Shown: in pieces, positions 3,975 through 48,431 of the stretch | Layout of the letters: every line of letters begins with the position of its first letter | Position numbering within the stretch: position 1 is the first letter of the stretch | NCBI GenBank assembly: GCA_000934665.2 | Contig: JYFJ02002967.1 | Location: 1 to 48,431 of the forward strand | Length of the DNA stretch: 48,431 bases | Direction of reading: 5' to 3' | Source: Catajapyx aquilonaris | Taxonomy: Eukaryota | Notes under the pieces: generated by a model | Databases searched by the model: none | Told to the model about the DNA's origin: nothing | What the model saw: the letters and a program-made list of their open reading frames with translations, nothing else | Program-made: the position numbers and the translations under genes

Positions 3975-5175
3975 ATGTATGCTGTTCGACTTGTCACTGC
4001 TGTCACCCCCTCTACCTCGGCCTGCCTTCGTTTGAGCCTGGGCCATGCACGTTCCCACCTTTCCCCAGCCAAGCAGCATCTGCGCAACTTCAACCAGAGC
4101 AACATCTTTCGAAGTAACGCCTTCCGCGGTACCCGCACCAGTAAGCGACGTACCCTTCGAGAGATGGCCTTAGCTCCTACGTCTGGATCACCTTTCATAT
4201 TGGGCAAAGGTGTGATAGCAGGTGCAGCAGCATTTGGCGTAGGATCCATGTGTTACTATGGTCTGGGGTTGTCAAACCAACCGGGAGCTGTTGAGAGGGC
4301 TGCCCTGTGGCCTGATTACGTGAGAGATCGCATACGTGACACCTATGCTTACTTTGGCGGATCTATTGCCTTGACTGCTGCGAGTGCTGCAGCTGTCTTC
4401 CGATCACCTGCCCTTCTGGGATTGGTGACCAGAGGTGGTTTCCTGGCCATGGCAGGGACATTTGCAGTCATGATTGGTTCTGGAATGGTGGTGAGGAGCT
4501 TGGAGTACAAGCCAGGGTTTGGTCCCAAGCAGCTGGCCTGGGCTGCCCACTGTGCAATCATGGGAGCTGTTGTGGCACCACTGTGCTTCTTGGGGGGCCC
4601 ACTGCTGATCCGGGCTGCATGGTAAGTAGACACACCTTCACCATATTGTTTCCTTTTTATAGGGAGTACCAGTGCAAGAATAGGTCCATAATAACAAAAG
4701 TTTACTTATGTTCCAAGGAACTGCTAGACTTCCAAAAGTTAGTATGGCTTGATGTAAAGAGGAACTTTGCTGAGCGATATCCATGTATCTCTGTAGGTAC
4801 ACAGCTGGAGTGGTTGGAGGCCTGTCCGTAGTGAGTGCCTGTGCCCCGAGTGAGCAGTTCCTGCACATAGGTGGTCCCTTGGCCATGGGCCTTGGGGTGG
4901 TCTTTGCCTCTTCAATTGGGAGCATGTTCCTCTCCCCTGCAACAGCCCTGGGAGCTGGTCTCTACTCCATCAGCCTGTATGGTGGGCTCGTGGTCTTCAG
5001 TGGATTCCTGCTGTACGACACCCAGAGGATTGTCAGGATGGCGGAGTCGCATCCCACCTACAACGTCAGGCCCTACGATCCCATCAACGCTTCCATTTCG
5101 ATCTACCTGGACACCCTCAACATCTTTGTCAGGATTGCTACCATACTGGCTGGAGGTGGAGGAAGGCGCAAGTAG
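3975..5175 (+). CDS. GHITM: Growth hormone-inducible transmembrane protein (TMBIM5/MICS1, Bax inhibitor-1 family), 341 aa
   Basis: Exons 3975-4621 and 4797-5175 give 1026 nt in frame. Arg/Ser-rich N-terminus resembles a mitochondrial presequence. Motifs CYYGLG, WPDYVRDRIRDTYAYFG, RAAWYTAG, FLLYDTQ and YDPINASISIYLDTLNIFVRIATILAGGGGRRK. Confidence 0.96.
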
Positions 5176-8500: not shown

Positions 8501-8991
8501 AAACCTGGTCAGTGAATCACATGCATATTAATTCAATGAGTAAACATTTAGAGAGCTTAACACTACTGAAAGTTAATTTTTAAGAGCAATGTACAACCCA
8601 AAGGGCAACATTTAGTATGGCAAATAACAGGTTACCTAAGGAAAGCAGCGTCCAAGTCCCAATCTGACAGTAACGAGAGGTAAGTCTCCTGGCCACAGTC
8701 ATCCACAGCCAGGTACTTGACAGCAAACTCTCCCTTGATGTCAAAGGCCCTGGCCAAGAGGCTCTGCAGCACCTCGAAGGACGTGATCTGTGGGTCCACA
8801 CAGAACTTGCGGTACTCTGGCTGCTGGTTCCCATTGTACTTCTGCCACGAGAGAGAGTGTCGCAAGTAGGAAGCCCCTGGACTTGTACAGCCCATTCAAC
8901 GGGCAATTCCCGTGCCTATTAAATCCCCCACTTGACGTACCTTAACTTTGACCCTTACGGCCTCCCGATTGTATCCCATGTAGCCAGTCAT
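5511..8991 (-). CDS. TBC1D25: TBC1 domain family member 25 (Rab-GAP, OATL1), 807 aa
   Basis: Exons 8991-8941, 8841-8636, 8297-8126, 7852-7109 and 6761-5511 are all GT-AG and total 2424 nt in frame. N-terminal REAVRVKVKK..YRKFCVDPQITSFEVLQSLLARAFDI..LLSDWDL, candidate LIR DEWDLV, TBC catalytic motifs VRKDVLRTDR and GYCQGMSDL, FCYRWLLLELKREF, GGGNPFLMFLCL. Confidence 0.95.
7948..8095. repeat. 148-bp near-perfect palindrome (foldback MITE-like) in TBC1D25 intron 3
   Basis: Two 74-bp arms centred on ACCAGTTAACTGGT, four mismatches seen, no spacer. Confidence 0.9.
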
Positions 8992-16333: not shown

Positions 16334-20987
<4,654 letters not shown>

Positions 20988-27843: not shown

Positions 27844-30800
27844 ATGCATGTATGTAGGCTATGCTTAGGAGGCAGTGCCAAGAAGAACAAGAAGATGAAA
27901 GATCAACCAGCTGTGTCTCCCACATCATCCTCAGGGATGGCAATTGGGGGACTACCTCCTGATGGAGGGATGGAAGGGGGAGGGGGACTGGGGGAGGAAT
28001 TTGAGGAGATGCTGCTGCGCAGTGCTCGCAACGGAGATGAAAACATGGTGCGGGAGATGATGTTGGCTCATGTTGAAGGGAAGGTTGACCTCAACATCAG
28101 TTGTAAAGGTATGTTCTTATACAGTATAATTATGCTTGGTTTTCTCTGGAAGTTTTAAAGAGCAAAGCTCGGTTTATATTGCTGAACCTTGATCTCCTTC
28201 AGCATCGGCCGAATGGGAATGATTCTTTGTTGTGCTCCTCAGTGCAATTTACTCTTAAAAGGTTGCTTTAGTCATGCAGAAAGTGTAAACTGGGCAGAAA
28301 CTATATATGCTCCGGTTTGTTTTGCTGGTCGATTCCGGTGACTCATACAGTATTCATGAAGAGCTTTTTAATTTCATCTTCATCCTAGAGAATAATGAAA
28401 AATAAATATCGTGATCAGTAACCTGGTAAGGCTTCAGTTCTAAGCCATTGCCAGGGGCAGTGACAGGGCTGGGAAATAGAAAGCAGTAGGACTGACATGG
28501 AATTTGAGTATACTTCACCTTGTTGTTTGAATTTATTCAAGAGTAGTAATACATTTTGGTGCAGGGAAATCGAAGAGCAACCTGGGCTGGACTCCCCTCC
28601 ACCTTGCAAGCTACTTTGGCCACCTGGGAGTGGCTGAGATGCTGCTCAAAAATGGGGCCAATGTAAACTCAGTAAATGATGCAGGGGACACACCTCTTCA
28701 TAAGGCCTCCTTCACAGGCCGTGAAGTAAGTGCCAATAGTTGATGCCAATAGTGTTTGGCCCATAGTGATTCTGTATCTAGTTTATCTTCTTTTTTTTGC
28801 ATTGAATAGGATCTGGTGCTTTTGCTGCTGCAAAACAGAGCTGATGTAAATGTGATAAATGGAGAGGGTCAGCGCCCTAGGGATGTCTCTCTCAGCAGTG
28901 ACGTGAGGAAACTGCTTATTGCTGCAGAACAAACTGAGCTCAGGAAAAAGGATGATAATCTACTCGCTGCCACACGTGATGGACATCTTGAGGTTGTGAG
29001 TGACATGGTGAGCTATTATAGGCTAGTCAATATTGAAAACATTATGCGAACTAAGGACAATTCATAACAAGTTTTCCCATCCTAGGCCTCAGTGATTATT
29101 CCTAGGCCTAGAAGGAGCAAATAAAACAAGAATGAAGGAAATAGAGCAAAAATAATTGAAAGACACAAATTGAATGCACCATATTACTAGAATCTAAAGC
29201 ACACCCCTAGTAGTTTTAAGTAGTGAAAAGTTAGCTATGGAGAATGCTTTGTACCAGTTTCTAAGATGTACGAGGTAGGCGCCAAAAGTTTCTGTGATGG
29301 CTATGTTCCAGGGGTGATGGAAATAAAACGATTGTGTCATTTTTCAATATAGTCTCCTTCTACATCAATGCACGTCTCATATCTCATAATTATAATTTCA
29401 ATACCTCTGGAAGAATAGTCCAAAGTTTTCTCTACAAAATGCTCGTATACTGCCTCTTACACCTCTTCATCACTTTTAAACCGTACCTTGAAGTTCTTTT
29501 TTGAGTTTGGATAACAGGTAATAGTCACTAGGGGCCAGTAGGGTGGGTGATCAAGCTCCTCGAAGCCACAGTTCCTCACAGCAGTCTTGGAAACATTGTC
29601 CTGTAACCTGGTTCATTATCCAGATGTTGGAGAACACCCCAACTCAACTTCCCGCATCTGTTCTTCTTCATGGCATCGCGAAACCTGTGCAGCAGGCCAG
29701 AGTAAGACTCCCTGTAGACAATCGAGGTTTAATCCTTGAAGTCTATTAGTAAGATTCCTTTGGAATTCTAAAGAACCGTCACCATGGTCTTCTTGGTGAC
29801 CGGGTCACTCGGCCGCTTTCCGCCTGCCCTAAGCTATTCCATTAATTCTCATTTTGATAGAGGATCATAGCACGGGACCATAGTTTCATCTCCTGTGACG
29901 ATGAACTCCAGTACTTCTTTCTGTTTGCCACGGCGAAGGTCCGAAAACGTTTCGCAACATGTTACGCATTTTTGCTTTTTAATTGCGGACAGAAGTTGGG
30001 GCACCCATCTTGTGCTGACCTTTTTCATGTGAAGGTGTTCATGAATAATGAGAGGAATGGTGGTGTCTGAAAGCCACAACCTTCCCAAGAGTTCCTCCAC
30101 CTCCAAGGGTCTGCTTGCAGCACCTACTCCTCCACAAGAGAGACGGTTTCTGCAGTCATCACCTCCACGGGCCGAAAGTCGCATAGCCCGCCTTCGATGT
30201 TCTCTCAGCCCAAACGAAACTGCTTAGCCCATTCCTTCATGGTGGAATATGAAGAGGAAGCTTCACCATACACACCACCCAAGGCCTGTTTAATAGACAT
30301 CGTAGTAAGGCCTTCCTTGGTGAGGAACTTGATCACTCTCGATACTCGATTTTCACCATGTTGCAACTCGTCTAACTAAAGTTGACTTTTCTAAGAGACT
30401 GACTGACGTTGCCGGGTGAAACTTGTACATTCCTCAACTCATGGTTGGGACTACCTGTCACTATAGTTGTTTCATTTCTATCACCCCTGGAACATAGCCA
30501 GGACGGAAACTTTTGGCGCCTACCTCGTACCAATTTTTTGCTGTATTTTTTAGACTAAAAGTGCATCGTAGATTAGAGTAAATAGGGCATTTCATGTGTG
30601 ACTGCTATAATAAGGTTTACATCTAACAAATAATAAGATTTGTGACAAGGAAACCATTAATTTGAGCAGAAAAACTGGCTATAAATGGCGCTAAAGGTAG
30701 TGGAGTCATGTCCATAACAGATATCTTTTTAGTTACAAATATTTAAAACTGGTTAGTGTTTTAAAATGTGTAAATTTCACAATTTTGGTTATTGATTTGT

Positions 30801-33800
30801 ACCTTTATACTTTTAATTTTGCAGTTACGTAGCACAAACCCACCCAACATAAACTGTGTGGATGCCTTGGGGAATTCCTGTCTGCATGTAGCAGCATATA
30901 GGGGCCACAAGGAAGTGGCTGTGCTGCTGCTGCAGAATGGTATTGACACTAGCCTTCGCAACCACCGGGGACAGACTGCCCTGGAACTCGCCAGGGATCC
31001 TCAGATGCAGCAGGTTCTGGATGTGCAACCCTTGAGGAGACTGCATAAGACAGCCACTCGTTTTGAGGGACAGCTTCTGAAGAGGTCTCGATTTATTGGA
31101 TGGAAACCTGTTTGGGTAAGAAAATAGCAGTTATTGGTTATCACTCTTATCAGTCAATTTTGATTTCATAAGTGAAAAAATAATCCTGTCACATTTGCCT
31201 GAAGGTACAGACATGATATTAACAAATATTTTTATTTGCCAATATTTTACTAGCTTCCTTGTCATGGTTGATTAGTGGATATAAATAGGGTAAACTGCTC
31301 TAATGAGCATCTATATTGGAATTTCCATGTAACTAATGGAAATATCTGGCTTTCTTCCAGGCTGTGTTGGAAAGGGGTGTTTTGGCCTACTTTAACAACC
31401 GTGCTGATGCGTGTTCAGGTGTTCACCGGAAAGATTTCAAATACCTTGATGGTGCTAGAGTGGTGCTTCTAGAAACCAGTGCTTCCACCTTTGTCATACA
31501 TTTCTCAGACAGCACCGTTCATCGACTCAGTGTACCAACAGTTGAAGCTAGTGAATTCAGTAGGCAGGTATGGAATGTCTCTCTTACCTGTCAAACTACA
31601 TGTGGTGAATTACACTATGTCCGATAGGGTCAGAATCTCATATTTCTAAAGGTGTCTGTAATGTATAAGAGCTTGCATCCTGTGTGATACCACCAACATA
31701 CATATTCAGTATCTTTTCATGGTATTTCTTTAGGAGCTGATAGCATCTGGAGGAGATTTAGAGAATCCTCAGTATTCCGAGCTTAATTTTCGGTTAATTT
31801 AGATATGTGGAAGTAGTGTTGTAAAAAAGCAGGAAATACTGACTGCTGGGGAAAAATGAAAGAAACACAATATTTTTTCCCCATGCCATCCACCACCTCC
31901 AGGTGATAGGCATTCAGAAAGGTTCAGATTTTATTTCACCTGACACATTTACTCAACTCATGTACAATCTATAAATTACCATCTCACATATGACTTCTAC
32001 ATGACTGGAGGGCCCAGTTGTCCAGTCTCCGCAAACTTGAATATGATCGGTGTTTCTGTAAACAATTTGGCCAAACTAAAATTGAAAATGACTGTTGATA
32101 ACTTTTGCTTTTATGCAGAAATGGATTCATGCCCTTCAGGAGCATATCTCCTTCAGCACCCATTACCTCAATCAAGGAAGTGTTATTTATGACAGTGATG
32201 AAGATGATAGAGATGTCAAACCACTAGGATCTATGCAAGTTAGTATATTGGTTATGAAGCAGTGCTCTGAGGCTATAAATATTTTATTGCCACTCACAAA
32301 ATAATAACACTTTCCCAGGATGCTCTTAAAAATGCTGCTGCTCATCATGGACTCCTGCAAAAGCAACTGACCGAAGCGTCAGGTATAATGGATGCACTCA
32401 CTACCAATGCACATGCTGAGGGGATTTATGGAGGAATGCTCAGAGTGAGTTAATTATATTTTCTTGTTGTTTACTTGTAACTGGGAAAGATGCAATTGCT
32501 GGGATATACTGATATGCCAGATTCATGCATTAGTGCAGTGATTAGCACCACACCCTTCCACGTCTGGGGTCCCAAGTTAAGTCCCTTAGTCAGGCGGAGG
32601 ATTCTCAGGTGTAAAAGAGTTTAGATGGGTTCTCTGTATGTTTGTCTTTGATTTCTTGATTTGCTCCAATTTCCTCCCACAATAAAAAGTCAATGAACAA
32701 TGCAGTGATTAAATATAGCCATGTCATTTAAAAGAGGATTCCCTAAAACACAGACCTCGCACTGTGGAACCAATTATATTATTATTATTGTAAGCAGAAA
32801 TTATACTTGAATCTAAATAATTATGTAGTGAAGGGTCTATTGTATTTCCTGTTTGAATTGTCATAATGTGACTTTTTTTTCTTTACATTTCCAGCGGATA
32901 CAGGGGATGTCAGACACTGCCCAAAGCATGCTGGGCACTTTAGGACACTGCCTGACCTTGTTTCAGCAACAGGAAGAAGTAAGCCAGTCTTTCTCAAACT
33001 CATGTTACAATTCACACCTCCAGACATATTATGTATTGACCACATGTACGGTCTGGCAATTCCTCCATCTGTACTAGATCTTGTGGCATCATAGCACAGG
33101 TAGACCCTGTTTTATGAAGAGATGAGATTCCAGCAAAACTGGATTATAAAGGGAAAAGTCATAAAACAAGGCCTACCTGTTCATGTGTGTAGAAGTGTAG
33201 ATACTGCCACAATGCACCACGAAAGACTAAAGAAATGCCTCCAGTGTGTTTGGATTCAGGTGTGTTACTAATTAGTTTTTTTGTTATTTTAAAATTTGTT
33301 TCAAATTGTTCATATTTAAGGTAATTTTGTAATGTGATACATAGTACATATGGTGTGCATCATGAAATGGGATCTACCTGTACTTGTAGTGAAGTTCTTT
33401 TGTGTGCTTTTTAAAAGCTGCATTATATCCTACAATACATTCCGAGTCTGCTAATACAGGTAAACCTGGATATAGCCAAAACTTGTTTGGTGGAGAAAAG
33501 TTTTGTGGTCCCAGCAGCAAGATAGGGTTTTTGTTTTAAATTTTCTTCATGGCAGAGCTGGTCTAACATTGAAATGCACAGCATTTATACACCCCTCATT
33601 AAGGAATACCCAGTGCATAATGAATTATTTGATATTTGATTAAAGACCATATGGTAAACTAGGAGTGGGCCAAAAAGTTAGAATGAAAATAGCCAAGAAT
33701 GGGTCAGTCAGCAGCATCAAAATAGTGGGCGATAGGTCAGTGATTAGCATTTGATGACCCCTTCCATGACGAGCGATGAATTCCACTACCCCATGCTGCA

Positions 33801-36800
33801 GAAATTTTTAAACATTTTTAATTGTGGCATTATGAAAAGGGTCCTATCCAAGAACAGTTAACTGAATATCAACGAGCATGGCTTTGTCCCTTCTTTTCAA
33901 GGTACGCTCCCTGCAATTGAAACAAGAGCAAGAGAAGTGCCGTGTTCTGGAAGAAGCACTTCATGTCTTGGCCAAGGAGCATCATGAACTTGAGCAATCA
34001 GTTGCCTCGCACCTCTCCTCCCCTGTTGGGTCTCCTGCTGTGAGAGCCACTGCTGGGTGCACTCCACGATTTTATGACACTTCTGATGATGAGTTTTATG
34101 ATGCTTTTGATGCAGGTAAATTTTATGATATTAATTCTATGTAAATACCTCCAGTAGTTTATCTTTGGTCAAAGCCCTCAAATTCTGTCAAATGTACTCC
34201 TAATTTTTTAAATAATTCAAATTGTAAGTCAAAATTAGTTTTTATTTCCACTTGTATCAAAGATTGTTTCATATGACCCCAGAAATGGGTAGAAAATAAT
34301 GATATTTATTCTGTTCTGATAGATACTGATGATGGAACATTGGTGACTGCTGCATCAAATTTCTCTGACTCTGACTCTGACACTCTTGTTAGTGTGCACT
34401 CTCTAGCTGCCAGTGAGTCATCCACCGGTACTCTGACCTCTCCGTCCCACAGTGTTGCTGTTGGTGCCTTTGCTGATCGACAATTGCATAAACGTCGTCC
34501 AAGGAGAAATGTTTGGAAGCATCACCATGGGCGGCAAGTACCTGATCCCATTTCAGCATGCATTTTTCAAGTCAACTTGAGTTTGAGAAGTTGTGGAATG
34601 CTGCTGGTCTTAGTTAATTCTCATGCTTTAGGACTTGTTCAAAAGTACTCACCTTACACAGGTTATATTTGTTAGGGCTGAGGTAGCATGTGTTTTGTGT
34701 ACTACTGTACAATAATTTTCGAGTAATCAAAACCTGGGTTGAGATCTGAGATAAAAGCTTTTGAAAATATGAATGCTATTAGGTTTTTAAAAGTGTAGGT
34801 TGAGGTTGCTCTGATTGCATAGGGTTGGCCGTGTGTCCATTACTTTTTCCCTAATAAATGATATGCAGTAAGCCACATGAATAGCAAAGGGTGTTCTTTT
34901 CTAATGAGAAGCTCTTAACCCTTCTTGTGTAATTACACTGGATGAAGTAGTATTAATGTAAGTGCCATATAAGTACTTGACTAATACCAAATCTTTGGAA
35001 TAGGCTTTATGAGTGTGGTTTTGCGTAGGTGTCCTCTTCCTTCTGCATACTAGCTTGGCACACTGGTTATTGAAACTGGAGAGGAAAGGTGAGGACATGT
35101 AGCATTGCCATGTTGCTCATGTTTAATGAAAATGGAAAGAGATGGCGATTGACAAGTTGACCATACCATCTACTCAACCAGAGCTAAATTCAAGCTTGAC
35201 ATTGGGAAGTACAAGGTGTCATGTAAAACACTGACAAACTTGTAGGGGTAATAGAGGGGACCAAAACAAACATATTTCTTATAGGAACCCATGTCCAGAA
35301 ACTCCATCTAGAGGTGGTTCATAGACAAGGAACGGGTCGCTCAGACGCGTTTCCGGACACTGGTTCCTACATGAAATATATTTGTCTTGATCCCCTCTAT
35401 TACCCCTACAAGTTTGTCGGTGTTTTTCATGAACACCCAGTATATTTTTAGACAGTTATGTCCGACATTGCACTCTGTCAACAAAAAAACACACAGTTTT
35501 GACTGAACATATCCTGGCACTAAACAGCCATTAGCACTCTCCCAAGGTAAAGCCTATGAAAATGAAAGCCTCGAAGCGATGATGGTTGTATAGCACCAGG
35601 ATACGCTTGGCCAAAAAACTTGCCAAGAATTAGTACCAAACCAGTATCACGAGAGAGCACTTCAAAGCCCTTGGTTCCTTGAAATATATGACACTGCATG
35701 CACAGTCTGAAACCAGATAAGATTCATTTATGGAAGGTGTGTTGGGTTGTAATGGTAAATCCACATGTGCTGATGTGTATTTTCTTAGCTATAATCCTGC
35801 AATAATGACAGGGATGTACTGATAATGGTTTTGAATTATTATATTGATGGGTCTCATTATGCTACATCAATCAAATCATCGGAATCAATTGTAAATCATT
35901 ATTTATTACATGTTGACAGGAATTATATTTGGGGTTGTTCAAGGCTTCATAGATTATTTCAGTGCCTTCTGCATGTCATTGCGCCAACTTGTTTGGTGGC
36001 ATTAGGTACAAGGGGCGAATCCTAGTAACGCACCACCTGCACATTTGAGGAACCCACACAAATGTGGGAACAAGTGTTCTACCAATATGACGGTGGGCGT
36101 TGTTGAGTCAATATCTGGCGTCACCTGCACAATTCCATTATGACAACAATACCCGGACCTCAACAGAGGTGCTTGCGTCAAGTCCTGAGGGAAGTACGCG
36201 TTTGTGGCGACGTCTGAATCGCACATGGAGGCATTTGTTGTCCACCGATTTCCCCACCCCCTGTGGTAGAAGAGGCAGCTCCTAGTGGTTCCAATGGAAG
36301 GTCTGCGATCGATTTTAGGTATGGAGCAGGCAGGCAGGGCGGGCAGGGCTTGTGTAGGAGGGTATAAAATAGGGGGTGGCAGGCAGAGGTGGTAAGAGTG
36401 GAATGGTTCCAGGCGCTGGCGCCGCGGCTTCTGCTGCTCCTACTACTGACACTGCATCTGGTGGTGGCCGTGGAGGTGACCGTGACATTGGTGGTGACGG
36501 TGGTGCTTGTGGTGGTCATGATGGGCGCATCCATGCATTGATTGGCGCAAGGTGATTTTTTGTTGCGTTTCCCCCCCTGTCACTCTTCCCCCGCACATCA
36601 CCAAAAAAAGAGAGAGGAAAATATGTGTCTCGGCCCCGTCCACCTCCGCATTTTGTGCCGACCACTTCTACTTGCGTTGGCGGTAGTCCACCGAAGATAG
36701 TATTCACTCCCCACTTCCTCCCCTTCACTAGTGATTGATGGCTACACTGACGTAGTACTATGACAATAGAGACAGTCGGGTCAGTAGGACGGCCTTTAGT

Positions 36801-39800
36801 GGCTAACCCTGAGTTAGATTTGAGCATGCAGTGTAGCTGGACCTCTAGTAGCACTCTGGATGCATCGTACTTGAGGAATGAATGGCCCTGTAGAATTTTG
36901 GGATGGTGCGACGTCATTTTGTCACGACTGATTTGCATTGCAAATCGTCATTTTTGGAAATAAATTCGTTAGAGTCGTGTACTGTACTTCAGTGCGACTT
37001 TTGTGTTTGACATGCAAAATGTAGCGGGAGATCGTCCCATTCCAGGTATTTTGTGAGTAAACATCACTCGACGTAATTGCTACGCACCATACTGCCCTGA
37101 GGGCGTGTGGTGGTTATCGCCATAGCCTTTCGGCTTGAGTGTTTTTATCAGCTGCCATAAATTGTAGCGTAAGTTATCTTAAGCATCATTTCCGTAACGA
37201 TGCCATTCACAGTTGATCAGCAAGACTGGAAAATGGAATATCTGTCAACAATATTTTAAAATTTGAATCACTAGCTACCCCCGGAATCCATTAATTAAGT
37301 ATTCCTGACAATCGAAAGGCAAAAGGAAATGACACTCTGAGACATTCGCATTGGCCAGTCTAGGTTTATGCCAGATATTTTGTAGTCTCGTTATAGGCAC
37401 AACTGCCACCTTACAGGTAAGAGCGTAGGTTTTCCGGAGAGGATTACGTCAACAACGCAGCGCAATACAAATTACCCGTGAGCAGTCCGTGTTAAGCTGT
37501 TATACTGAGGCCTGAAACATGAGGTAAATGAGGAGAGCTACTTGCAAGTCTGCATGTGCAATATTATTGTAAATGGTGCGTCATTCTTTCATAACTTGAA
37601 ATTACATCTCATCTCGCGCACGGTTATCCTTGAGACCGCGTTCCAGCTGGGTGCTCTAGCCGACTTATTACAGCATTTGGTGAGGAAAATGTTCAAACTG
37701 CACGCAGCTCCAAACCCCATCATTTTCCATATTACTGCGCGTGAAATGGTTGTAATGGCAGGAATGGCCGCGAATAAGGCAATCTGCCAAACACAATGAC
37801 ATTCTGCGGCGGCTGTGTTGTCGGAGCGATTAAAAGGCGGATCAGATGTACCGAGTGGGGTGGGACTGGTCACCTATGGGAGATTCAATTTGCTGGGCCA
37901 ATGGGAGCTTGTTAGTTCAGCGCCAAGTCAATTTGATGGACGAGAAAGCATTAGGTGTAACCAGGAGGAAATGGTCTCCCCCTTCGCCAGTTTATATCAC
38001 GGAGGCAAGAGCCATGGGATATGGATCTTCATCAAGTATTAATTCCCGGTAGTAAATGGCTCCCAAATAGGACTTGAATCTTGGATCCTGCCTCCTCGCG
38101 ACAGTTGGTAAATGAAGCTATTAGTTTAGGTACTGAATCCTTGGACCTGATGAGCTGGCGCCGACTTCCAACAATGACTTGCATATTTTATTCTCTTTGA
38201 TCCATTAATAAAATCGCGCTTAACCTTTTCGCAAATAGGACGACCTTCGCGGTGTCCAACATGGCCTAGTAGTCAGTGGAAACACTCGTTACTACTTAAT
38301 TAGTGGGACATAAGGCGTGCTCCGTAGCTGCAAGTATACAAACGGATGTTTGCTAGCATGTGCAAGGTCACATGTATCATCTGGTTTTAAAATTGCGCAT
38401 ACATGTCAGACCTCGTGACAGGTAGTTTGAGTGGGAAGGAGATAATCGAATGGCATGTAAGAACAGATGTAAGGGTGAAGACAACCGTGGTATGCTATTT
38501 GGAATCCCCCAAGAAAGATTTCAGTCTCAGTGACGTCAGTTGTCGGTCGGTAAAAAAAAGTTGCTCTCAACTTTATTGCCCGTGTAACTTTTAAGGTGCG
38601 GTGAGTTATGGTCCAGAGAATAGTTCTCATTAGTATTGTTTAGAATCAGTAGCCAGTAGGTACAGGCTACCCTTTTAAAAAGAGCATAGATGCTCTTTTT
38701 AAAAAGGTAGCCTGTACCTGATAACAAAAATTTCATATCCTTTTTATGTGTCACATCTGAATTTCCGCTGCTAGTTCTTCCATTGCACTTGTAGCCTGTG
38801 GAGAAATTCAAAGTTACGCCATTATTTAGTCAAAACCGGACCGAGTCATGTACCAGTTGTATATAAATGCAAACTAAGGCAAAATCTCTGATTATATGAC
38901 GTATGATCATGTGACGTAGACTTCGTTTTGGAACCGTGGAAATGGAAGGCCCCTACTGCTTCTGCTTCTCGGTGAAGCGAGAAAGGCACAAGGTTTGCCT
39001 ATCGTCCAGGATAACATGTACTACTTTCGTATGCTCTGCTCTCATCTGAGAATTACATGCATCAGGTGCTAGACATGCTGAACAGAGTGGCAATGAGATA
39101 AGTAATCAGGAATTGCGTAGCGGCAACATTGTATAGGCGGTAATTAGAGCACTCCATTCATCAGGGTTGTCAGGATGCTTTGACATTCTACTACTAGGTC
39201 TACATTACACTGTCTATTCAAAACGAACCGGGTTGTAAAGTTCTTCATGACACGCAGGGCGGTACCGTCTGTTATTCGAGTATAGCGCCCATTGTATGCG
39301 ACCCTGCGACCTGTTCAAAAATTGCTTAAGCCGTAAATCGTTTGTCATTTAACGATAAGCTACTTGTCCAGCTATCACAATGAGCTTAGAGCTAGTGAGA
39401 ATATGGCACAATCAATGTTCTGCTATAATATTGGGCAATTGTGGGTTTCCATAGTTTCCATGTAAACTCGCACATAGCTTTCCCGGATGATTACACCAGC
39501 CCGGCACATTTTCTTTTGATCACGAAAGATGGACAGAGGAATCGCAAGTTGTTCTAGTATTTTAATTAGAAGTAAATGATTTTTTCAATACTAAACCGAC
39601 ATGTGCGTGTACTAAATGTTGCAACGGACTATTGCACCACACTTGCACCGCAGAAGGTCGTCCTGTGATGTATCTCTTAACTAACACGAATGTTAATTTG
39701 ATACGCCATTTGCATCGCGTGGTCGCGTTATTGCACGCACCAGACACGCACTACACCCGATTGTAGTGGTGCATTTGTGCATAATCCCCGGATTTATTAT

Positions 39801-42800
39801 TCGCATCCTGGTGTCATCTGAAAAGAGCGGCTGTCACTCCAATGAGCCGTGTTGCCAGCAGCCCTGGCCATAACGGGAATCGATATACCAGCCCTGTTTT
39901 TTGAGACCACCATCCAAATTTAAATTGTTGACATTGGCGATATGCTATGCTGCACGCAGAGGTCCAATCTGCACGGTACCCATTGCGTACCAATTCGCAC
40001 GCAATCCGATTGTCCACGTCCTAATCGACCAAAAAGGGTGAACGTCTTCGCTCGCGTTTTTGGTTAAGATGTCATTGTTCTTGAAGCAAAAAGATGCCAT
40101 GCCAACCTGACTTGCGAATTTTTCGCGATCGACCTTGCGGGACGGTAGGGTGGGGTGGGGGATGTAGGAAATGGTTGAGTTGTGCGCGTGACGTCATTGT
40201 GACGTGGGGCGCCCCTCCTCTGGCGCGTCTCTTATTGTGCCATGTAGGGGCCAGTTCGCAGCTATGTCTTCCGAGGGCTGGTTCAGAATGGTAGGGGTTC
40301 AGATTTCGAAGGACAAGCATCGACCGCGAATCACGTGATTCAGTGCTTAGAGGGGGGGAAAGGGGGCTTAGTACGACGGAGGTGGTGGAGAACTCCGGGA
40401 GTCTTTGAGTGGTGTCTTAGGCAGTTAGTCTCGCAGTTAGTGGTCTGAGCCGTAATAAAAATGTATGGGATATGTAGTCCCACCTACGGTTGACACTTGC
40501 TGCACGTGCTTGTAGGCCGCGGTTATGTAAGATCGGGGAGGAAAAGTGCGAGATGATCTCATCACCGAATTGTGCATAAGCCAGGGGTGATGTTTTTACC
40601 TGTACGCATGGTAGAAACGGTGATTGGGATTGACTTGCCGATTGTTGAAGCGTAATTATTGCACGTGAAGCCACGGGCGGATATTCTGAGATCACCGCCG
40701 ATTTGCATTGTACTTCCTTCTTTTTTAAATGTTAACCTTGTTATATGACAACCGAAGCGAGTGTGATGTAGTGGTGATGAGTGTGTGATGCGGATGGAGA
40801 TGTGACCTCATTTTTTGTCGTATGATTTTCATGTTTGGTGACATCCTTACATTCCTCGTCCATTTCACCTGGTTTTCTTCCGTACTTTTTTTTTGTGTTG
40901 ATTTTCGTTCACTTCAAATCCACTACATCTGTTTTGTCCAATGTACTTTGTCTAGAACTTCTAAAGAGTGAGGTGTGGTTTGAGTGCGAGAAAAAAGGAG
41001 TGAGAAGATGGCAGCAGCTAATGATGAGGAGGAATCTAAACGCAGGTTAGTTCAAGTGTGGTTATCTTCACCAACTATAATGTGTACCGGGCCCGTGATT
41101 TGAGAAGGTCGGGTGACTCAGGTAATTGCATGGGTAGGACAGCAGGTGTTGACACCGCCTAATCACAGCTCCATGACAATTTGATAACCTCTCGTCAGTC
41201 CTTCGAACCGTAATTTCTTTGGGTATATGGAGCTTACAGGTCATTGCTCGATTCAAGAGAAAAAGTGGGTGCATGTCTCGAAGAGTATTGTTTCCGACGC
41301 GACGGGGACATCGGTTGCTGGGTTACCGTCTGGGGGTCTGCCTAAGGTCGTGAACTGTGCAGGTCAAATCCGTTGCGTCGCAAATGAAACTGCTCTCTGG
41401 CTGCAATGAATATGCACTGGACCTGGAGGTGTGTGCAGGCAATCGCGAAGAATATCATGGAGCGTGACAGTGAGTTTGAATCTAATATTGCAAAATCAAA
41501 GAGGCTATCACCTAGAAAGGGGATGGACTTCCGATAGAGATGTGATAGTATAGTTTCCAGAGATACAGCATGCTGGAAATTGAGATGGAAGGCTGTAAAT
41601 CTAGTTAGTGGGAGTAAACGTGAGTTACCAGGCCGTTATTGGCGGAATGGTCGAATGCTCATCAGATCGAGGGTGTGTAGGAAACACATTTTCCAGGCGT
41701 TTCATTCGACCGAGAGGAGTTTGTCTTCCGCTCTTCTGACCTGTTGTAATAATGGCCAACATTGGCAGGAAATTGAAAGGAAAAAAAGCTGGAGCGGAAA
41801 AGGGTTGGTGGGGCGCCTGGTATTATATCCCTATTGATTTTGCTTCCTGCAAGACCTGCTGGCTATTGATTGCTGGAGAGCACAAATCCTGGTTTTGGCC
41901 CACTGAAGGGGGTAGGAAGGCACCCCAGTTTCCACCCAGCCGAGTGTCTGGGACAGGATAATGAGGATGGTCGAGTGTCTCTTTTATATTTTGGCTCCAG
42001 TCCAGTATGAACCACGTGGGAGGCTTCAAACGGGATGCTGTGTGCTGACAGCTCCAGAAAAAGAGCTGGAAGCTTCCAGGCGCTCTCAATTTTCCAGCTA
42101 AACCCGTCGCATCTGTCTAGGTGCTGATGGTATTGACCCACTTGGTGGACGCAGAGGGTGTTGGAAATTGAAATTAAGCCAGTGCAGTGACGTCAAATGC
42201 AGCTTCTGTTGAAAAGGAGGAACAATGGTGGCTGGCAAGGATGTCTTGTTGAACTAGACGGAAATTAGAAACAGCCCGGCCAGTAATTAAAATGGATGAC
42301 CTTGCCCTCTTTGGAAGCGTGTTTGTTCTTCTGGTGGAATTACAAGGTTTTGGTCGATGGGATGCCCCTATTGCGCGCGTACCTGTAGGTGGTCGGATGG
42401 GAATCCACTTATCGGATGGTATTTAGCGAGACACTTAACGGCCAGAAATTGCGTCTTCCTGATTGGATGTAGACGAGAAAAATGGTGTGATTGCCGAACT
42501 TTGGGGGTGCTAATTGTGGAAGTTTGGAAGTGGGTCGGGTGTTGGGTGACTTCTCAAAACGTTCCGCTGATGGGAGGATTTCAATTGATTTGGCTTGTAA
42601 TGTTCGCAGAAGACTTGACATTCCGGGTATTAAAGAGTTCATAGGTGTGCTCAATAGAGGCGGAATTAATGTGATCAGTGCCCTGAGACATTATTCCATC
42701 CCACGCCTGTAAATAAAGGAATGAATAGTTAGTAGTGATATTAACTCAGGAGAGCATTTTCTTGTGTCTGCGTGTTTTCGCTGTAGAGCTATCTCAGGGT

Positions 42801-45800
42801 TTCTCCTTGAAAGAAGCTTTTATCTGGCAAACTCAATTTTTGGGAGGGATCTGGCCCCGAAGCCTTCAGCCCTCTCGCACTAACTCGGTCTTTCCTTTCC
42901 TTTATGAAATTTCCGAGAGAACTCTGAAGTTTGTTTCTTGAGTTGGAGACAACTCAGTCTTCTTTGCCGAGGCGTGCCGGGAATTCGAAGCCAGTAGAAA
43001 ACCAGTTCTCTTCCGCAGACCATATATATTGGGAAATACGTTTCCAGACTGTGATTTGATGTCGATAAATAAATAATGAATACGACTTTTTTCTGTTCCA
43101 TGCAGTGCCAGGAATATGTCTTACTCTAAGATGCAAGAATAAAATGTAATCATAATGTTAACCTAGTAAAAGTGAAGTGGATCTACCATGTTTTACTTCC
43201 CACTAGTGTAATAAAGCAAAAGTTTCGAAAATTCAAGTTGCATTATCGATTTTTACATTAATTATAAAAGCTACTTAATGCATGGACTGGATTTATAATC
43301 GATCTGTTGCATATTATCTGTTGGAGGTTATAGTGGATCCCTCAGAGTACTACGCACTTTTTCAGAATCCGCAGGTGAACCAGGTGGCAAAAGTTTAAGC
43401 ATGCCGTATACTTATTTTTAGCTGTGTCTAAGCTAGTGTTTTGTGAAATGTGAGTAATATTTAAGTAGTTGGAGTGTGATTTTTTTTCGCTCTGCAGGAC
43501 TCGGCTCCCTGTGCCTATGTTCAGTCGGAACGACTTCAGCCTGTGGTCAGTTCTGAAGCAGTGCATTGGGAAAGAGCTCAGCAAGATCACCATGCCTGTC
43601 ATTTTCAACGAACCAGTCTCCTTTCTCCAGCGTATGACGGAATATATGGAGTACGCTTTCCTCCTGAAGAAGGCAGCCCAACAGAGCGATCCTATAGAAC
43701 GCATCCAGGTCTGTGCCACTTTCACATTACCTGTACCAGAGAGAGACCTTGGCTCTCTTCCTATAATATTGATTTGCAACCGAGCCAGGAGGGAGAGGGG
43801 GAAAAAATGATGGGAGCCCACCTCATTAGCATATTTTTGGGAAAGTAGGCACTTTCTGTTCCCCCGCATGGCTCTCATGCAGAGGCTTACGAGTGCTCAG
43901 GAAGATATGGACTTGTGGCCTAAAATTAGACTGTGGATTTTGCTGCAATTCATTAACCAAGGTGGTGTGAATGAGAATTTATAATCTGCTGCTGCTTACT
44001 TTAGTAATGGGAAAGTTCTCATTCTGTCAGTGATAATTTAAATACGTACATATATTTGCAATTGACAAGGACAGTTTTGTGGAAATTTTTAATACCAAAA
44101 GAACACCACTAGGTGTCACTGTTTCATTAAAACCTTGTTAGGTGAAGCTAGAAGTTATGGTAATAACTGTAGGAAGAAAGGGCAAAAGTTGAAGTTCTGG
44201 TCTTAATTTTGGGCCAATTAAAAAGATCCGAGTTATTTTTCATTACACTAAAGAATGCTACAAAAAGTCAAGCTGAAGTGGTATTAAAGGCATTCTGTGA
44301 GAAGCAGTCGGAACAGCCTGCATTTGCCCCACGTCCTAGCATGCCATTAACATGCCCTCTAATGGGCTGAGAGAGGGGGGGGGGATTAGGACTTGAGTGA
44401 AGTGAGGTGCCTTGATTTGGGAGTTGCAGCTGGGAGTTCTCACTTCAAAAGCAGAAAGAAAGTGCTGCAGTTTTTACTCAGATTCCCATGTTTCTCCGAG
44501 AATTTACAGGATTCTTCTCTTGCCTCAGAGAAATGCATATCATGAATTTTCTGCACTCACTTGTCAGTCTAATACATTCTAGTTACTTTTTGGACTTGTT
44601 GATTCAGGGCCGGTTTCACCGAGCTCTGTACATGATAAAACCAGGTTTCTTTAGGAAAATCCATACAAATATGTAGGGATTTTCCGAAAGAACCCTGGTT
44701 TTATTCATATACCGAGCTCGGTGAAACCGGCCCTCAGTATGTTTTCATTTTCCAGTTAGATTGAGATGTATGGATGTGATTGATATGTCATTACAATATG
44801 TCTACTTGATAAAATACATCTTTTGCATAAATGGTTGTTACTCAAAAACTTCAGTATGCCTCTAATGAGAGCATGTTGATTGTGTATGAATTAATGGCCG
44901 TCTCTGCTCTTCCAGTATGTCACTGCCTTTGCTGTGAGTGCTTTGGCTTCCAATTGGGAAAGACTAGGAAAGCCATTCAACCCACTACTTGGAGAGACTT
45001 ACGAACTTGAGCGGGAGGACTTCAGGTTAGCATTTTGTTGTTGTGTGAATGAACTTTTTCCTTACTCCAAGCTGGCCTGCAATAAATTATCAGTAGGAGA
45101 AGCTGTAACTGGTAAAGTACAATCCTATACAAACAAAGGAAGATGAATGCTGTTCCTCATAAAGTTGGGGAATTTATGTTGTTTTCCTTGCTACCACTTT
45201 TCTAAGGAGTGAATCCAACATGACTTCAACTGGTCCTGTTTCCATCTCAGGATTGTGTGTGAACAAGTGAGTCATCACCCTCCAGTGTCTGCATTCCATG
45301 CTGACAATGAGGATTTCATCTTCCATGGGTCAATCCACCCGAAACTAAAATTCTGGGGCAAGAGTGTGGAGATCCAGCCAAAAGGATCAGTGACAGTCGA
45401 ACTCCCCGCCTGGGGGGAGGCCTACACTTGGACTAATGTAAACTGTTGTGTCCACAACATTATTGTGGGTAAGCTATGGATTGAGCAGTACGGGACATTG
45501 GAACTGGTCAATCACTCTACAGGACATCGATCAGTGCTTACCTTCAAACCTGCTGGGTGGTTCTCTAAGGATCTTCACAGAGTAGAAGGATTCATCACTG
45601 ACAAAAAGTGAGTCTGGTTGGGGCAATTATAAGGTTTTCAAGGATATTGTGATCAAGGAAAAAGAAGTGTGCATCTTTATGATTCTTGGAGTGAATAAAG
45701 TAAATTATTATCATTATGGCAATAACACACTGACATCGGCCAGTCATGGACCCTCGATAGTGGCAAATGGTCTAATGCAGAAAGATTTTGCTGCCTCATG

Positions 45801-47564
45801 AGCAGGATAGGATTTTCCCTGAATTTTCATCAGATATGATAAAACCTGTCTAATGCGGTTATGGACAGTATTTTTTATCTCCATCAGTAAAGAAAAACGT
45901 GGATTGTGAGCCACAACGTATCTCTTAACCAAACCACTTACCACTCTTTGAACTATTTTTTGTGCATTTCAATCGCTTTCCTAACTTGCATTCAATTTGA
46001 ATGCTGCAATATTCGCATTGGGCCAGTAATTTCTAGTTTTGAAGAAAATGTGTTGTGTTGCAGCTGTCCTTGTGCATTGAAATCTTTCAGTGTGTCAAAA
46101 ACTACTAACAAGCTAACAAAAATTATACGGGGATGCAGGGTATCCTCCGGTATCCTCAGTTTTAGCCGTGGTAGAAATTAAAATGCAATCATATTTGTAA
46201 TATTAAAAGCCAAAATACTGCATAGCTGGAATCACCTAAACGCATTTACATGTGAGCAATTTGAGCAGCGATGACAGTGAGTTGTGGTGGTTCTGACATC
46301 ATGATGCAAGGGAAAGCACGTAAGCATTGCACGTGTGTTTACAAGCCGGCAATGTGCATCGCTACCAGAATGCCAACGGCATTGCCCGCGCAAATGTCGA
46401 TGGGAATGTTGCATTGAACGTAAGCAATCCAATGAAACAATTGGGTGCCTACCTGTCACAATATTTCCACCCGAATACACCTTGGTGTGCTGCTGCCTTA
46501 TTGTTCGGCTCGGTTCGGTTCGTTTATGACACCATGTACTTCGCTGTAGTCTACATCAAACAGACCTGAGCGATGTCATCGCTGATGCCCTCCCTTTATA
46601 AACGTGATTGCTACTTTTGGCCCAAATCACTTCTCTCATTAGGATTTATTCGCTCAGCTATGACTTTGCTCAGCTATGACATCGTCGTCAAATCGCTCAC
46701 ATGTAAACACGGCTTAAGGTGATTACGTGTTTGAAGAGCTTCAAGAGATACTTCATGAAATTGCTATGTGGAGGGGAAATATATTCAAGTTGGGATATAA
46801 ACATGTTTTTCTTCTTCTTCTGTGCAGCAAGAAGAAGCTGTTCTTCGTGTATGGAAAGTGGACTGAATTCATCCGATGTACAGACTTCAACTCATTTGAG
46901 GAGTACATGAAGTCTAATCCTAACAAATTTAGGTACAACTTAAGCATGTATGTGGTCATTTTTTTATTTTTATTTTCTTAAGTTGACAGCCATTGGAGTG
47001 GTAGTGAGCACTTTGGCAGAGTTTTTTAGGAAAATATTTTGTTCAATTAGACCAGTTTAAAAGATTTTGCTTAATGAGCTTCATGACTGTGGAGTGACTG
47101 ATTATAGTGGAGGGTGGGGGAAAGTGTGAAGCTGGCATTATCTTCAATATTGACATTTTCCTAAATGAAATTAGGATTGGCAGTAGATGTATTTCATGTA
47201 ATCAATTTTTATGCCCTTCTGAGATATTTTGTATTTTTATTTTCATTTTTGTTCTCTCCTGATTGGTTCTATGGTGAACATATCCTTAGAGGTATTCTTA
47301 GCTAATATCATTTAATTTACTACCTCTTTTCACTAATAAGGAGAAAACTCATTCTTTTTAGTGTGCCATCATTTTGACTACTTAGTCCAGCGTGATATTT
47401 CATTGTGCTTTCATGTATTATCCTCTCACAGGAACTCATCAGACTCTGAATCTCGGTCAAAAGGCCCGTCCCCAATGGCCAGTCCTGCCAACACTCCGAA
47501 GAAGGTCTTGGCCAAGCTCAATAGCCTCACAGTCAGTCCCTTCAGGCACTCAACTGACACCGAG
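27844..47564 (+). CDS. OSBPL1A: Oxysterol-binding protein-related protein 1 (ORP1L-type: ankyrin-PH-FFAT-ORD); 3' end lies beyond the window
   Basis: Exons 27844-28108, 28565-28725, 28810-29007, 30825-31115, 31361-31567, 32119-32238, 32319-32444, 32895-32978, 33902-34115, 34323-34533, 43498-43708, 44916-45025, 45251-45607, 46828-46932 and 47432-47564 give 931 codons in frame. Ankyrins ([22 protein letters not shown]), PH ([14 protein letters not shown]), FFAT (SDDEFYDAF), ORD ([35 protein letters not shown]). Start could be 27844 or 27895. Confidence 0.95.
29271..30527 (-). mobile_element. Full-length (1257 bp) mariner transposon, decayed, in ORP1 intron 3
   Basis: TA|CGAGGTAGGCGCCAAAAGTTTC..GGCTATGTTCCAGGGGTGAT and its mirror ending CCTACCTCG|TA. 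Confidence 0.93.
29337..30359 (-). pseudogene. Mariner transposase pseudogene
   Basis: Starts MVKIEYR then frameshifts. Fragments [37 protein letters not shown] and terminal GDYIEK* lie in different frames. Confidence 0.88.
32530..32790 (+). mobile_element. Older copy of the V-domain-like SINE family at 13328
   Basis: Collinear matches AGTGATTAGCAC, CCTTCCA, GGTCCC, GAGGAT, AGAGTTT.GATGGGTTCTCT, TTTCCTCCC.CAAT.AAAA, TGATTAAA and an (ATT)n tail. Confidence 0.75.
35212..35440. mobile_element. Tc1/mariner-type MITE with about 90-bp TIRs
   Basis: TA-flanked. GACAAACTTGTAGGGGTAATAGAGGGGA is mirrored by TCCCCTCTATTACCCCTACAAGTTTGTC. Confidence 0.85.
36403..36551 (+). CDS. Candidate alternative first coding exon of a short ORP1 isoform (Gly/Ala-rich leader)
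   Basis: TATAAAA at 36363, ATG at 36403, open [25 protein letters not shown]...IHALIGA-AG|GTGATT. Phase 2 matches the acceptor at 43497. Confidence 0.45.
38658..38719. repeat. 62-bp hairpin (30-bp arms, one mismatch, 2-nt loop)
   Basis: AGGTACAGGCTACCCTTTTAAAAAGAGCAT-AG-ATGCTCTTTTTAAAAAGGTAGCCTGTACCT. Confidence 0.88.
40180..40700 (+). promoter_or_regulatory. Candidate internal promoter with CRE and E-box cluster
   Basis: TGACGTCA at 40189-40196, palindrome GAATCACGTGATTC around 40328-40341, CACGTG at 40503 and 40662. CpG-rich. Confidence 0.5.
41008..41045 (+). CDS. Candidate alternative start exon of a short ORD-only (ORP1S-like) isoform
   Basis: Long pyrimidine tract with acceptor at 40955, AAGATGG start, [20 protein letters not shown]. 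Phase 2 joins 43498 to give ...[16 protein letters not shown]. Confidence 0.62.
44607..44733. mobile_element. Palindromic PIF/Harbinger-type MITE
   Basis: TCA|GGGCCGGTTTCACCGAGCTC ... GAGCTCGGTGAAACCGGCCC|TCA. The whole element folds back. Confidence 0.88.
46240..46714. mobile_element. PIF/Harbinger-type MITE of the same TIR family as 13035-13212
   Basis: TTTACATGTGAGCAATTTGA ... TCAAATCGCTCACATGTAAAC. TAA on both flanks (46237-46239 and 46715-46717). Confidence 0.82.
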
Positions 47565-47763
47565 GTGAGTCACATCATTTGTCCAATTTCTGCATCCCCT
47601 GCAAGTAAGAGTCCTAAGACAAAATAGCACTGCTTATAGCGGTATCAAGTTATTAGCTCTTGGCGGTATTTATGCTTGAAAAACAATATGTGGCCAAAGT
47701 CACCATATCCAGTTGGGTCTGTTTGTGTCATAAAATATATTAATGCAAGTATGGTAGTGACAA

Positions 47764-48431
47764 TCTATAATATTAAAATGCTTGCGTTGCATGTATAAGC
47801 CCTCTGATTGGTCCGCCCCCGCATTGTCGCCGCCACCTCTTCCCATTGGCCCCCTGTCCATTGTTGCTGCGTCGTATCCATGACGCACTGTTACCACGAC
47901 GCCTCCGATTGGCCCCCGTTCCGAGCATGCGCAATGGGTGGGAGAACGCCTCAGTCGCTTGCTGGACGTCAACGCGGACGCATCATTCTCCTCTCCCGTG
48001 AAGACCCCTCCACCCTGCCACCATCCTCCGCCCGCACGTCTTCACAGTGACCTCACATCAGGGGAGGGGGAGAGGAAGGAGGAATGGAACGTGCCGTAAA
48101 CAAACCAAATCGAATGTTGGCCAAGGGCGAGATGTTGATTATTATCAGTGGTGCCAATAACTACATGGACGTTTATGAACAAAGTAAAGTAAATTTCGGT
48201 TTTTGGCCACTTCCCCTTGCGGCGAGAAAAAAAGCAGTGGTACCAAAAGCACCCAACAGGTGGAGTTGGGATGCCGTTCCTTTTTCCCCCTTCCCCCAAC
48301 GCCACCTCTTGGATGCTTTCGGTAACACTTGCAGACTTGCTTTAACTTTTCTCGACGCACGTGGATATTGAGTAATACGGTCCTCTCACATCTGACGGCA
48401 GTCTACTGGCATCCCCAGTGGGAAGAGTTGG
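47764..48431 (+). mobile_element. Possible Helitron-like or other CpG-rich insertion, truncated by the window edge
   Basis: Starts A|TCTATAATATTAAAA, similar to Helitron 5' ends, with an abrupt switch to CpG-rich DNA and three ATTGG boxes. 3' end not seen. Confidence 0.3.

Follow-up and report, generated by a model that had tools for sequence, protein, structure and literature searches.

A candidate leader mini-exon for an ORD-only ORP1 isoform in the large intron of the Catajapyx aquilonaris ORP1 gene

Introduction

Does the large intron that parts the two halves of the ORP1 gene in Catajapyx aquilonaris contain promoters of its own, and if so, how many different proteins would they serve? 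The gene lies on contig JYFJ02002967.1 (GCA_000934665.2, a 286-Mb animal assembly), which was analysed over its whole length of 48.4 kb (48,431 nucleotides; the window). A phase-2 GC-AG intron of 8964 nt (34534–43497, + strand) lies between the exons for the ankyrin repeats and the FFAT motif and the first exon of the lipid-binding ORD. The initial annotation of the window read this intron as a possible cassette of alternative promoters giving several ORD-only isoforms with different N-termini, and cited as precedent the long and ORD-only forms of mammalian OSBPL1A. The precedent agrees with published passages, in which human OSBPL1A uses alternative transcription start sites to make an ANK-PH-FFAT-ORD protein and an ORD-only protein (PMC3208247, PMC7185962). 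At the Catajapyx locus one ORD-only form is upheld by a match to the leaders of related proteins, whereas the case for three coding N-termini falls away, two of the three proposed segments (36403 and 37519) being chance-like. From the DNA sequence we consider it very probable that one ORD-only isoform is made by way of the segment 41008–41045; for more than one internal promoter the chances seem to us about even.

Results

A leader of the protostome type in the intron

Homology searches and cluster look-ups gave 335 related proteins. Those of 400–560 residues with a Met start and 4–35 residues before the junction with the ORD supplied 105 distinct leaders, a set that includes predicted and redundant models and some clear mispredictions. 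The leaders come from insects, a centipede, crustaceans, horseshoe crabs and molluscs, have a median length of 15 residues, start with Met-Ala (55) or Met-Glu (20) and in 95 cases end in an Arg split by the junction. A profile was built by dropping the 10 leaders that lack the final Arg and collapsing the rest on their last five residues, leaving 67. Scored leave-one-out, true leaders have a median of 11.4 bits (lower quartile 7.1). The segment 41008–41045 scores 8.9 bits (7.8 bits without the length term) and ranks first among the intron's 34 phase-2 segments, the runner-up scoring −1.8; 8.9 bits is reached by one of 1000 shuffles and by none of 79 segments in 400,000 strand-bases of background DNA. 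The encoded leader is acidic and has 13 residues including the split Arg. It belongs to the short protostome type that begins Met-Ala or Met-Glu and is acidic/basic in character, to which 36403–36551 does not belong. Splicing 41045 conceptually to 43498 keeps the reading frame, and the product has no ANK, PH or FFAT element; at the level of sequence it keeps the ORD's N-terminal loop along with its lid.

The leader is part of a predicted mini-exon at 40956–41045 (+), with a 52-nt untranslated region (UTR), ATG 41008 and the donor CAG/GTTAGT; an in-frame stop (40969–40971) lies 37 nt before the ATG. Immediately upstream is a tract of 154 nt (40800–40955, +) that is free of AG, 71% pyrimidine and closed by TAG at 40953–40955, a probable 3′ splice site. 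No AG-free run on the window's + strand is longer than this one (40800–40953), which ends 52 nt before ATG 41008; runs of this length number 8 in 400,000 background strand-bases, or 0.18 expected per intron length. Because 41008–41045 follows this tract, 40956–41045 probably represents a small coding exon that non-coding first exons are spliced to, rather than a first exon with a promoter of its own.

Three phase-2 segments are expected by chance

The initial annotation had drawn on three ATG-to-donor segments, 36403–36551, 37519–37523 and 41008–41045. All exist as described; they are open, end in phase 2, run in frame into 43498 and have a purine at −3 of the ATG. Their number is at chance level, and phase was rejected as evidence. 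In 1000 dinucleotide shuffles of the intron, scored with an approximate home-made donor matrix, donors with an in-frame ATG average 2.07 at a donor score of ≥4 (probability of three or more 0.33) and 4.14 at ≥3 (0.78). The intron itself has 5 at ≥4 (P 0.06), and real background DNA has 1.77 such segments per 8964 nt. The count had passed over two other phase-2 donors that are just as strong (36391 and 41428). Phase 2 is indeed the phase of the intron at 43498, as had been claimed, but an ORD-only protein does not depend on it, since the first ORD exon has an in-frame ATG at 43517, the equivalent of human Met541.

That three promoters, each with a coding first exon (at 36403, 37519 and 41008), give three ORD-only N-termini is in our view unlikely. 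The region 36200–36551 (+) has features of a possible distal promoter with a first exon (GC 58%, G-skew +0.29, TATAAAA at 36363, 40 nt before ATG 36403, and a donor at 36551) and lies near the point at which the intron begins to keep CpG; this assignment is putative. The product of 36403–36551, however, is a Gly-rich peptide of 50 residues unlike any conserved leader; it scores −28.6 on the profile, and the DNA around it is G-rich and of low complexity, so that a frame readily stays open there. The segment 37519–37523 (+; ATG-AG/GT) would place only Met-Arg before the ORD. It has a good start context and would give a protein like the soluble human construct 534–950, and its profile score of −4.3 is indistinguishable from chance. 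Relatives, too, have minor leaders with low scores (−6.5 to 2.4), so a low score removes comparative support only; an extra exon specific to this lineage could score as low, and 37519 may still be a start. Two to three short N-termini are seen in models of four of the six species that have both long and ORD-only forms (Ischnura, Cloeon, Neocloeon and Anabrus), with starts at internal Met residues counted. Against three coding first exons, neither the 36551 nor the 37523 donor has the G at +5 that is present in 12 of the 13 verified donors. If the 40956 acceptor is active, moreover, splicing to it would close both the 36403 and the 37519 segment at the 40969 stop and make them upstream open reading frames.

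The strongest GT donor of the intron (37416, score 7.3) has no in-frame ATG. It closes the segment 37397–37416 (+), a candidate end of a non-coding exon or a 20-nt micro-exon, whose acceptor at 37397 is weak (1.6); read in phase 2, this micro-exon closes in Tyr-Arg, like most leaders of relatives. An acceptor-like site at 43106 scores 7.3, the same as 43498, and is followed by donors at 43374 and 43449, a possible non-coding exon or cryptic acceptor.

A gap in the CpG depletion of the gene body

The observed/expected ratio of CpG is 0.31 in 34534–35990 (1457 nt) and 0.81 in 35991–43497 (7507 nt). Pooled, the other 11 modelled introns have 81 CpG against 231 expected (0.35; binomial p for the contrast 3.6e-13). 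The same asymmetry is seen at the ends of the intron, with 0.18 in its first 500 nt and 0.74 in its last 500 nt. Thus the earlier statement that the intron keeps CpG from about 36000 and differs in this from its neighbours is correct as a contrast; the level itself is not special, the genome background having a median of 0.71 (200 1-kb windows from 20 stretches, 60% of them at ≥0.65). Since 0.81 is close to the genome level, the signal is a gap in gene-body depletion and not an island. By the ratio the intron is no CpG-island promoter (0.81 against the background of 0.71); only 39500–40800 reaches 1.08–1.10. CpG is also retained downstream in two intronic stretches, 45608–46700 (0.73) and 47565–48431 (0.79). 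Passages in the literature describe CpG observed/expected as a proxy for methylation (PMC5915941) and report, for the termite Zootermopsis, that introns are methylated and that unmethylated CpG within methylated blocks is for the most part a mark of promoters (PMC5111047).

A nested gene, a non-coding RNA gene or recent mobile insertions unrelated to ORP1 could also keep CpG in an intron, and other CpG-rich patches of the window do coincide with repeats. The intron contains two candidates for such an origin. One is a foldback repeat at 35219–35432 resembling a miniature inverted-repeat transposable element (MITE), with 84-nt arms that are 88% complementary and at least 107 matches in its own genome (40 scored of 1205 candidates); it sits, however, in the CpG-poor part of the intron. 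The other is a single-copy, near-perfect hairpin at 38658–38719 (30-nt arms, −46.3 kcal/mol, z −9.6), at which CpG dips locally. None of the 80 open reading frames of at least 50 codons in the intron reaches the Pfam cut-off (best E 0.011), an Rfam search of the window finds no match, and there are no repeated or paralogous exon units inside the intron. The CpG-retaining part (35991–43497) is apparently single-copy; searches of the animal's own genome, which may skip very common words, return only self-matches for 35900–43497. No stretch of the intron matches 200 kb of background loci, an insensitive check that also missed the MITE-like repeat. We give this origin of the CpG pattern next to no credence. 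The hairpin may be a decayed foldback element or a hairpin RNA.

Candidate promoter regions

The region 40000–40800 (+) is a candidate for an internal promoter with a non-coding first exon (CpG observed/expected 1.10, G-skew +0.26) and, judged on sequence features, is the most likely one, a putative assignment. A motif scan finds TGACGTCA at 40189, TGACGTG at 40200 and CACGTG at 40332, 40503 and 40662; we take TGACGTCA to be a cAMP response element (CRE) and CACGTG to be an E-box. TGACGTCA occurs 3 times against 0.5 expected from the CpG-rich background (P 0.014), and for its half sites the count is 12 where 4.0 are expected (P 0.001). Among core promoter elements, strict TATA, DRE, Ohler motifs, initiator (Inr), GC box and CCAAT show no significant enrichment against 300 shuffles, and TATAAAA occurs at the background rate. 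With the third CRE palindrome at 42188 and a CCAAT in reverse orientation at 42461, the stretch 42188–42466, 1.3 kb before the ORD exon, is a possible proximal promoter or enhancer.

Isoforms and the orthologous intron in other arthropods

Long and ORD-only models occur together in 6 of the 11 species for which several isoforms are listed (Anabrus, Ischnura, Cloeon, Neocloeon, Lycorma and Sitodiplosis). All are predicted gene models, which presumably rest on RNA-seq, and the isoform clusters need not list every isoform. The first 150 residues of the ORD are identical between long and short forms in Anabrus, Ischnura, Cloeon, Sitodiplosis and Lycorma. A literature search, with subscription papers mostly outside its reach, turned up no publication that treats long and short isoforms of ORP1 in arthropods.

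A metagenome scan supplied 22 loci, four of which carry the first ORD exon (92–93% identical to a termite protein, hence termite-type); three of these reach 5.3 kb upstream, two of them nearly identical. In the three, 4 kb of the orthologous intron keep CpG at 0.65–1.15, up to a point some 1.3 kb short of the exon. Downstream of the exon, the 3-kb intron is CpG-depleted in all four loci (0.07–0.47), which shows that the length of an intron is not enough to keep its CpG there. One TGACGTCA lies about 1.95 kb ahead of the first ORD exon in each of the three. The comparison of orthologous introns proposed in the initial annotation therefore bears out the CpG retention but not conservation of non-coding sequence, the best alignment of the window intron to the termite-type intron having E 0.14. 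Between two of the termite-type loci, which are about 93% identical and hence too close, no constraint is readable.

In one of these loci (L026) the stretch 3350–3915, 1.5–2 kb before the first ORD exon, has a CRE, CCAAT-like boxes and a strong donor at 3915, and may be a non-coding first exon for a form that starts at an internal Met. An exact 14-nt match between the window (36158–36171) and L026 (3232–3245) has E 0.49 and is probably due to chance.

Is there an internal promoter at all?

Several observations weigh against an ORD-only isoform started from 41008, and some of them would suit a gene in which the intron is ordinary unmethylated DNA, the leader-like segment is accidental and only the long form is made. 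The profile and the splice matrices are home-made and were built after the candidate had been seen. The residue before the split Arg is itself an Arg, as in 1 of the 105 leaders, whereas Tyr, Leu or His stands there in 83; this costs 4.3 bits. The codon of the atypical Arg, CGC, is one base from the His codon CAC. The 40956 acceptor scores only 0.8 on the local matrix (verified acceptors 1.0–8.9), and donors for a first exon within 40000–40800 are weak (best 2.5, at 40290). CpG in the intron is near the background level described above. The CRE evidence is modest, because 18 motifs were tried and core promoter motifs are not enriched, and the paired CRE pattern occurs 88 times genome-wide against 69 for the reversed control. 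No non-coding block aligns the window intron with that of the termite-type loci, and their leader exon is not within the 5.3 kb upstream. Finally, 5 of the 11 species list long models only (Periplaneta, Hetaerina, Halyomorpha, Schistocerca gregaria and Oratosquilla).

The leader score (one shuffle in 1000, no background segment in 79) and the position of the window's longest AG-free tract, 52 nt before ATG 41008, argue against an accident. So do the leaders found at the same junction from insects and a centipede to crustaceans, horseshoe crabs and molluscs, and the termite-type neighbour intron, which at 3 kb is depleted throughout. We regard a gene with no internal promoter as very improbable.

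The gene and the borders of the intron

The gene model has 13 exons (27937–45607, +) and encodes 820 residues without a stop codon. Its exons rest on tblastn with four insect ORP1 proteins. The long form is encoded, in an open model, by coding exons 1–3 (27937–28108, 28565–28725 and 28810–29007), 4–7 (30825–31115, 31361–31567, 32119–32238 and 32319–32444) and 8–10 (32895–32978, 33902–34115 and 34323–34533), all on the + strand. These ten exons carry ankyrin repeats, a PH-like region, a coiled region and the FFAT motif. Pfam Ank, Ank_2, Ank_4 and Ank_5 match exons 2 (28564–28725) and 4 (30825–31115), with a best E of 2.8e-15. The exon for the PH region (31361–31567) on its own has no Pfam or PDB match to a PH domain and aligns at 44–60% with the four insect ORP1 proteins; the Anabrus long form likewise lacks a Pfam PH match. 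An acidic tract contains EFYDAFD (34091–34111, +, read directly), which we take to be an FFAT-type motif and which the insect long forms share. Beyond the intron, the first ORD exon (43498–43708, +) matches Pfam Oxysterol_BP (PF01237, 43499–43708), and two further ORD exons follow at 44916–45025 and 45251–45607 (+), with the EQVSHHPP signature and an Oxysterol_BP match at 45252–45605. The claim that the intron parts the N-terminal domains from the ORD is thus confirmed by Pfam domains on its two sides; for the PH region the support is an alignment with relatives. Additional ORD exons lie near 46840–46932 and 47432–47564 (+), and the gene continues past the end of the contig.

In the PDB the first ORD exon is closest to the ORD of human ORP1 (5ZM5, E 2.4e-31) and then to ORP2 (5ZM8, E 9.1e-28); matches to ORP3 and OSBP are far below these. 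The equivalent of human ORP1 Tyr583 is conserved. The genome has one match of the ORP1/2 type, and as the other three are only 36–50% identical, a single gene of this type is detected. Among the 120 proteins listed out of 1337, none is more than 84% identical over the first ORD exon. A quick tree of 36 proteins, with 17 winged-insect rows and no wingless hexapod, places the window protein among arthropod ORP1, outside all 17 winged-insect rows, in a clade that leaves out crustaceans, the centipede and chelicerates (supports 93 and 92, neither starred). From this position the animal reads as a hexapod-type arthropod of an early branch.

The donor of the long form is GC instead of GT (G/GCAAGT, 34534–34539; score 5.7) and is otherwise a good match to the consensus. 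Its use gives His-Gly-Arg at the junction, like the cockroach and termite long forms; Arg is found at this junction in 80 of 81 long relatives. The intron splits the codon equivalent to human Arg534, at the start of the N-terminal loop of the ORD; the human numbering was checked against Ile549, Ile557, Met559, Arg579 and Tyr583. Two alternative phase-2 GT donors for exon 10 (34443 and 34644) were rejected, as neither reproduces the junction residues of the relatives.

A split locus would account for the same exons differently, with the GC donor used rarely or never, the upstream half ending by read-through and the ORD half forming a separate gene whose promoter lies in the ‘intron’. Such a split can be entertained because the donor is GC, the frame of exon 10 runs on through 46 intronic codons, a hydrophobic stretch among them, up to the stop at 34673–34675, a poly(A) signal AATAAA follows at 34853, and models of the N-terminal half alone, ending just past the junction, exist in Schistocerca americana, Nezara and an older Halyomorpha record. 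Yet the GC site otherwise fits the donor consensus well and restores the junction of the cockroach and termite proteins, joined long proteins are present in sister species and in newer records, and AATAAA occurs at 0.6 per kb in the window. We consider a split locus quite improbable, and the short ORD product would be identical in either case. Within a single gene, read-through over 34534–34858 could give a truncated ANK-PH-FFAT product. It is also conceivable that a weak GC donor ahead of an internal promoter region biases the ratio of long to short form.

Other features of the window

Two other ORP1 introns contain insertions. One, at 29500–30540, includes a reading frame on the − strand (29849–30223) that resembles a fragment of a mariner-type transposase; the other is a short element with inverted ends (44601–44737) that matches background loci. 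By eye, we take the neighbouring genes to be GHITM-like (3918–5175, +), TBC1D25-like (5511–8900, −) and a mixed-lineage kinase with an SH3 domain (16334–20987, +).

Discussion

The model that we favour has two kinds of transcript. An upstream promoter would give the long ORP1 (ankyrin-PH-FFAT-ORD), with the GC donor at 34533 spliced to 43498. At least one intronic promoter, most likely at about 40000–40500, would give the ORD-only protein from a transcript that splices into, or starts just before, the mini-exon 40956–41045; ATG 41008 would then supply the acidic 13-residue leader, joined in phase 2 to 43498. Transcription from intronic sites, the positions of the start sites and the use of the 40956 acceptor are all predictions of the model.

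The leader probably serves only to place a start codon ahead of the N-terminal loop of the ORD, its own sequence being nearly free, because the junction corresponds to human Arg534 and human constructs can begin at 524 or 534 and stay soluble but do not tolerate losing the loop. Published passages on the human ORD describe soluble constructs 514–950, 524–950 and 534–950, an oligomerisation barely altered by removal of the first 20 residues and a sharp drop in solubility when the N-terminal loop is deleted (PMC6381110). If translation began at ATG 43517 (Met541), part of this loop would be missing. Since different leaders would give much the same protein, useful variation would lie in the promoters and not in the N-termini. 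Extra promoters (36200–36550 and 42200–42500) may exist, but would mostly feed the same mini-exon or skip to ATG 43517, and would chiefly change the 5′ UTR and regulation, and the protein less. The CpG pattern is consistent with an internal promoter region that escapes gene-body methylation and so keeps its CpG. If human ORP1S is a guide, the short form would carry sterols in the cytosol, without the anchors to Rab7/late endosomes and to VAP.

Taken together, these points can be extended to a wider proposal, which we hold tentatively, at a little under even odds. In the protostome ancestor, a single ORP1/2 gene would already have carried an internal promoter together with a phase-2 leader exon at the ORD loop, and the intron would have been unmethylated since before the winged insects. 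In flies, mosquitoes, beetles, moths and lice, the ORD-only genes would be the leftover internal unit after loss of the ankyrin-PH-FFAT half, and not orthologues of vertebrate ORP2. In Catajapyx several promoters (36200–36550, 40000–40500 and 42200–42500, with CRE and E-box) would compete with the weak GC donor, and the balance would determine how much short form is made relative to long. The arrangement is most likely real but mostly ordinary, the principle of a long and a short form being known from the human gene and from predicted insect models; for this reason the gain is mainly evolutionary and for annotation. Arthropods obtain sterols from their diet. A conserved long/short ORP1 switch would be a control point for sterol routing, and would open a simple path to ORD-only genes in several insect groups. 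A gap in gene-body CpG depletion could, as at this locus, flag an internal promoter in a non-model hexapod.

Comparison with known systems

At the junction seen in the window gene, the ORD-only proteins listed for mosquitoes, beetles, moths and lice carry a leader of the same kind. Among the proteins listed for these groups, a non-exhaustive set, there is no long form, whereas the window gene keeps both halves; long forms are present in a gall midge, a fungus gnat, a soldier fly and a sand fly. This distribution suggests that the 5′ half (ankyrin-PH-FFAT) was lost repeatedly in insects. For Drosophila, a published passage describes an ORD-only ‘ORP2 orthologue’ and no ORP1L (PMC7353163); the candidate for comparison with the window's short form is CG3860.

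Close to the predicted short form are the arthropod models in which one ORD is common to long and short proteins. Ischnura X3–X5, Cloeon X2–X4, Neocloeon X2–X3, Anabrus X2–X3, Lycorma X1–X2 and Sitodiplosis X3 have a short leader running from Met-Ala or Met-Glu to Arg with the same junction residue, and extra forms begin at an internal Met. The window differs from these models in its leader, which has Arg for the usual Tyr, Leu or His; the donor of its long form is GC.

Human OSBPL1A resembles the window gene in that one gene has long and ORD-only forms, the short form of the window being a prediction from sequence. The two human proteins have different tasks; according to a published passage both act on cholesterol from endolysosomes but in opposite directions, ORP1S delivering it to the plasma membrane and ORP1L to the endoplasmic reticulum (PMC7185962). 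Human ORP1S is described as residues 514–950 of ORP1L, with no residues of its own (PMC6381110; PMC3208247, Table 2). A short form of this type, started at an in-frame Met of the long form, is not available here; exon 34323–34533 encodes no Met, so the short form of the window needs either its own leader or ATG 43517. Unlike ORP1S, it would depend on a dedicated leader exon in the intron that splits the codon equivalent to Arg534. Vertebrate ORP2 (OSBPL2), which groups with vertebrate ORP1 in the quick tree, is an ORD-only sterol carrier with a closely related ORD, as the short form of the window would be. Unlike the window gene it is a separate gene, and its leader, in the bird sequences listed, has about 62 residues and an FFAT-like motif of its own.

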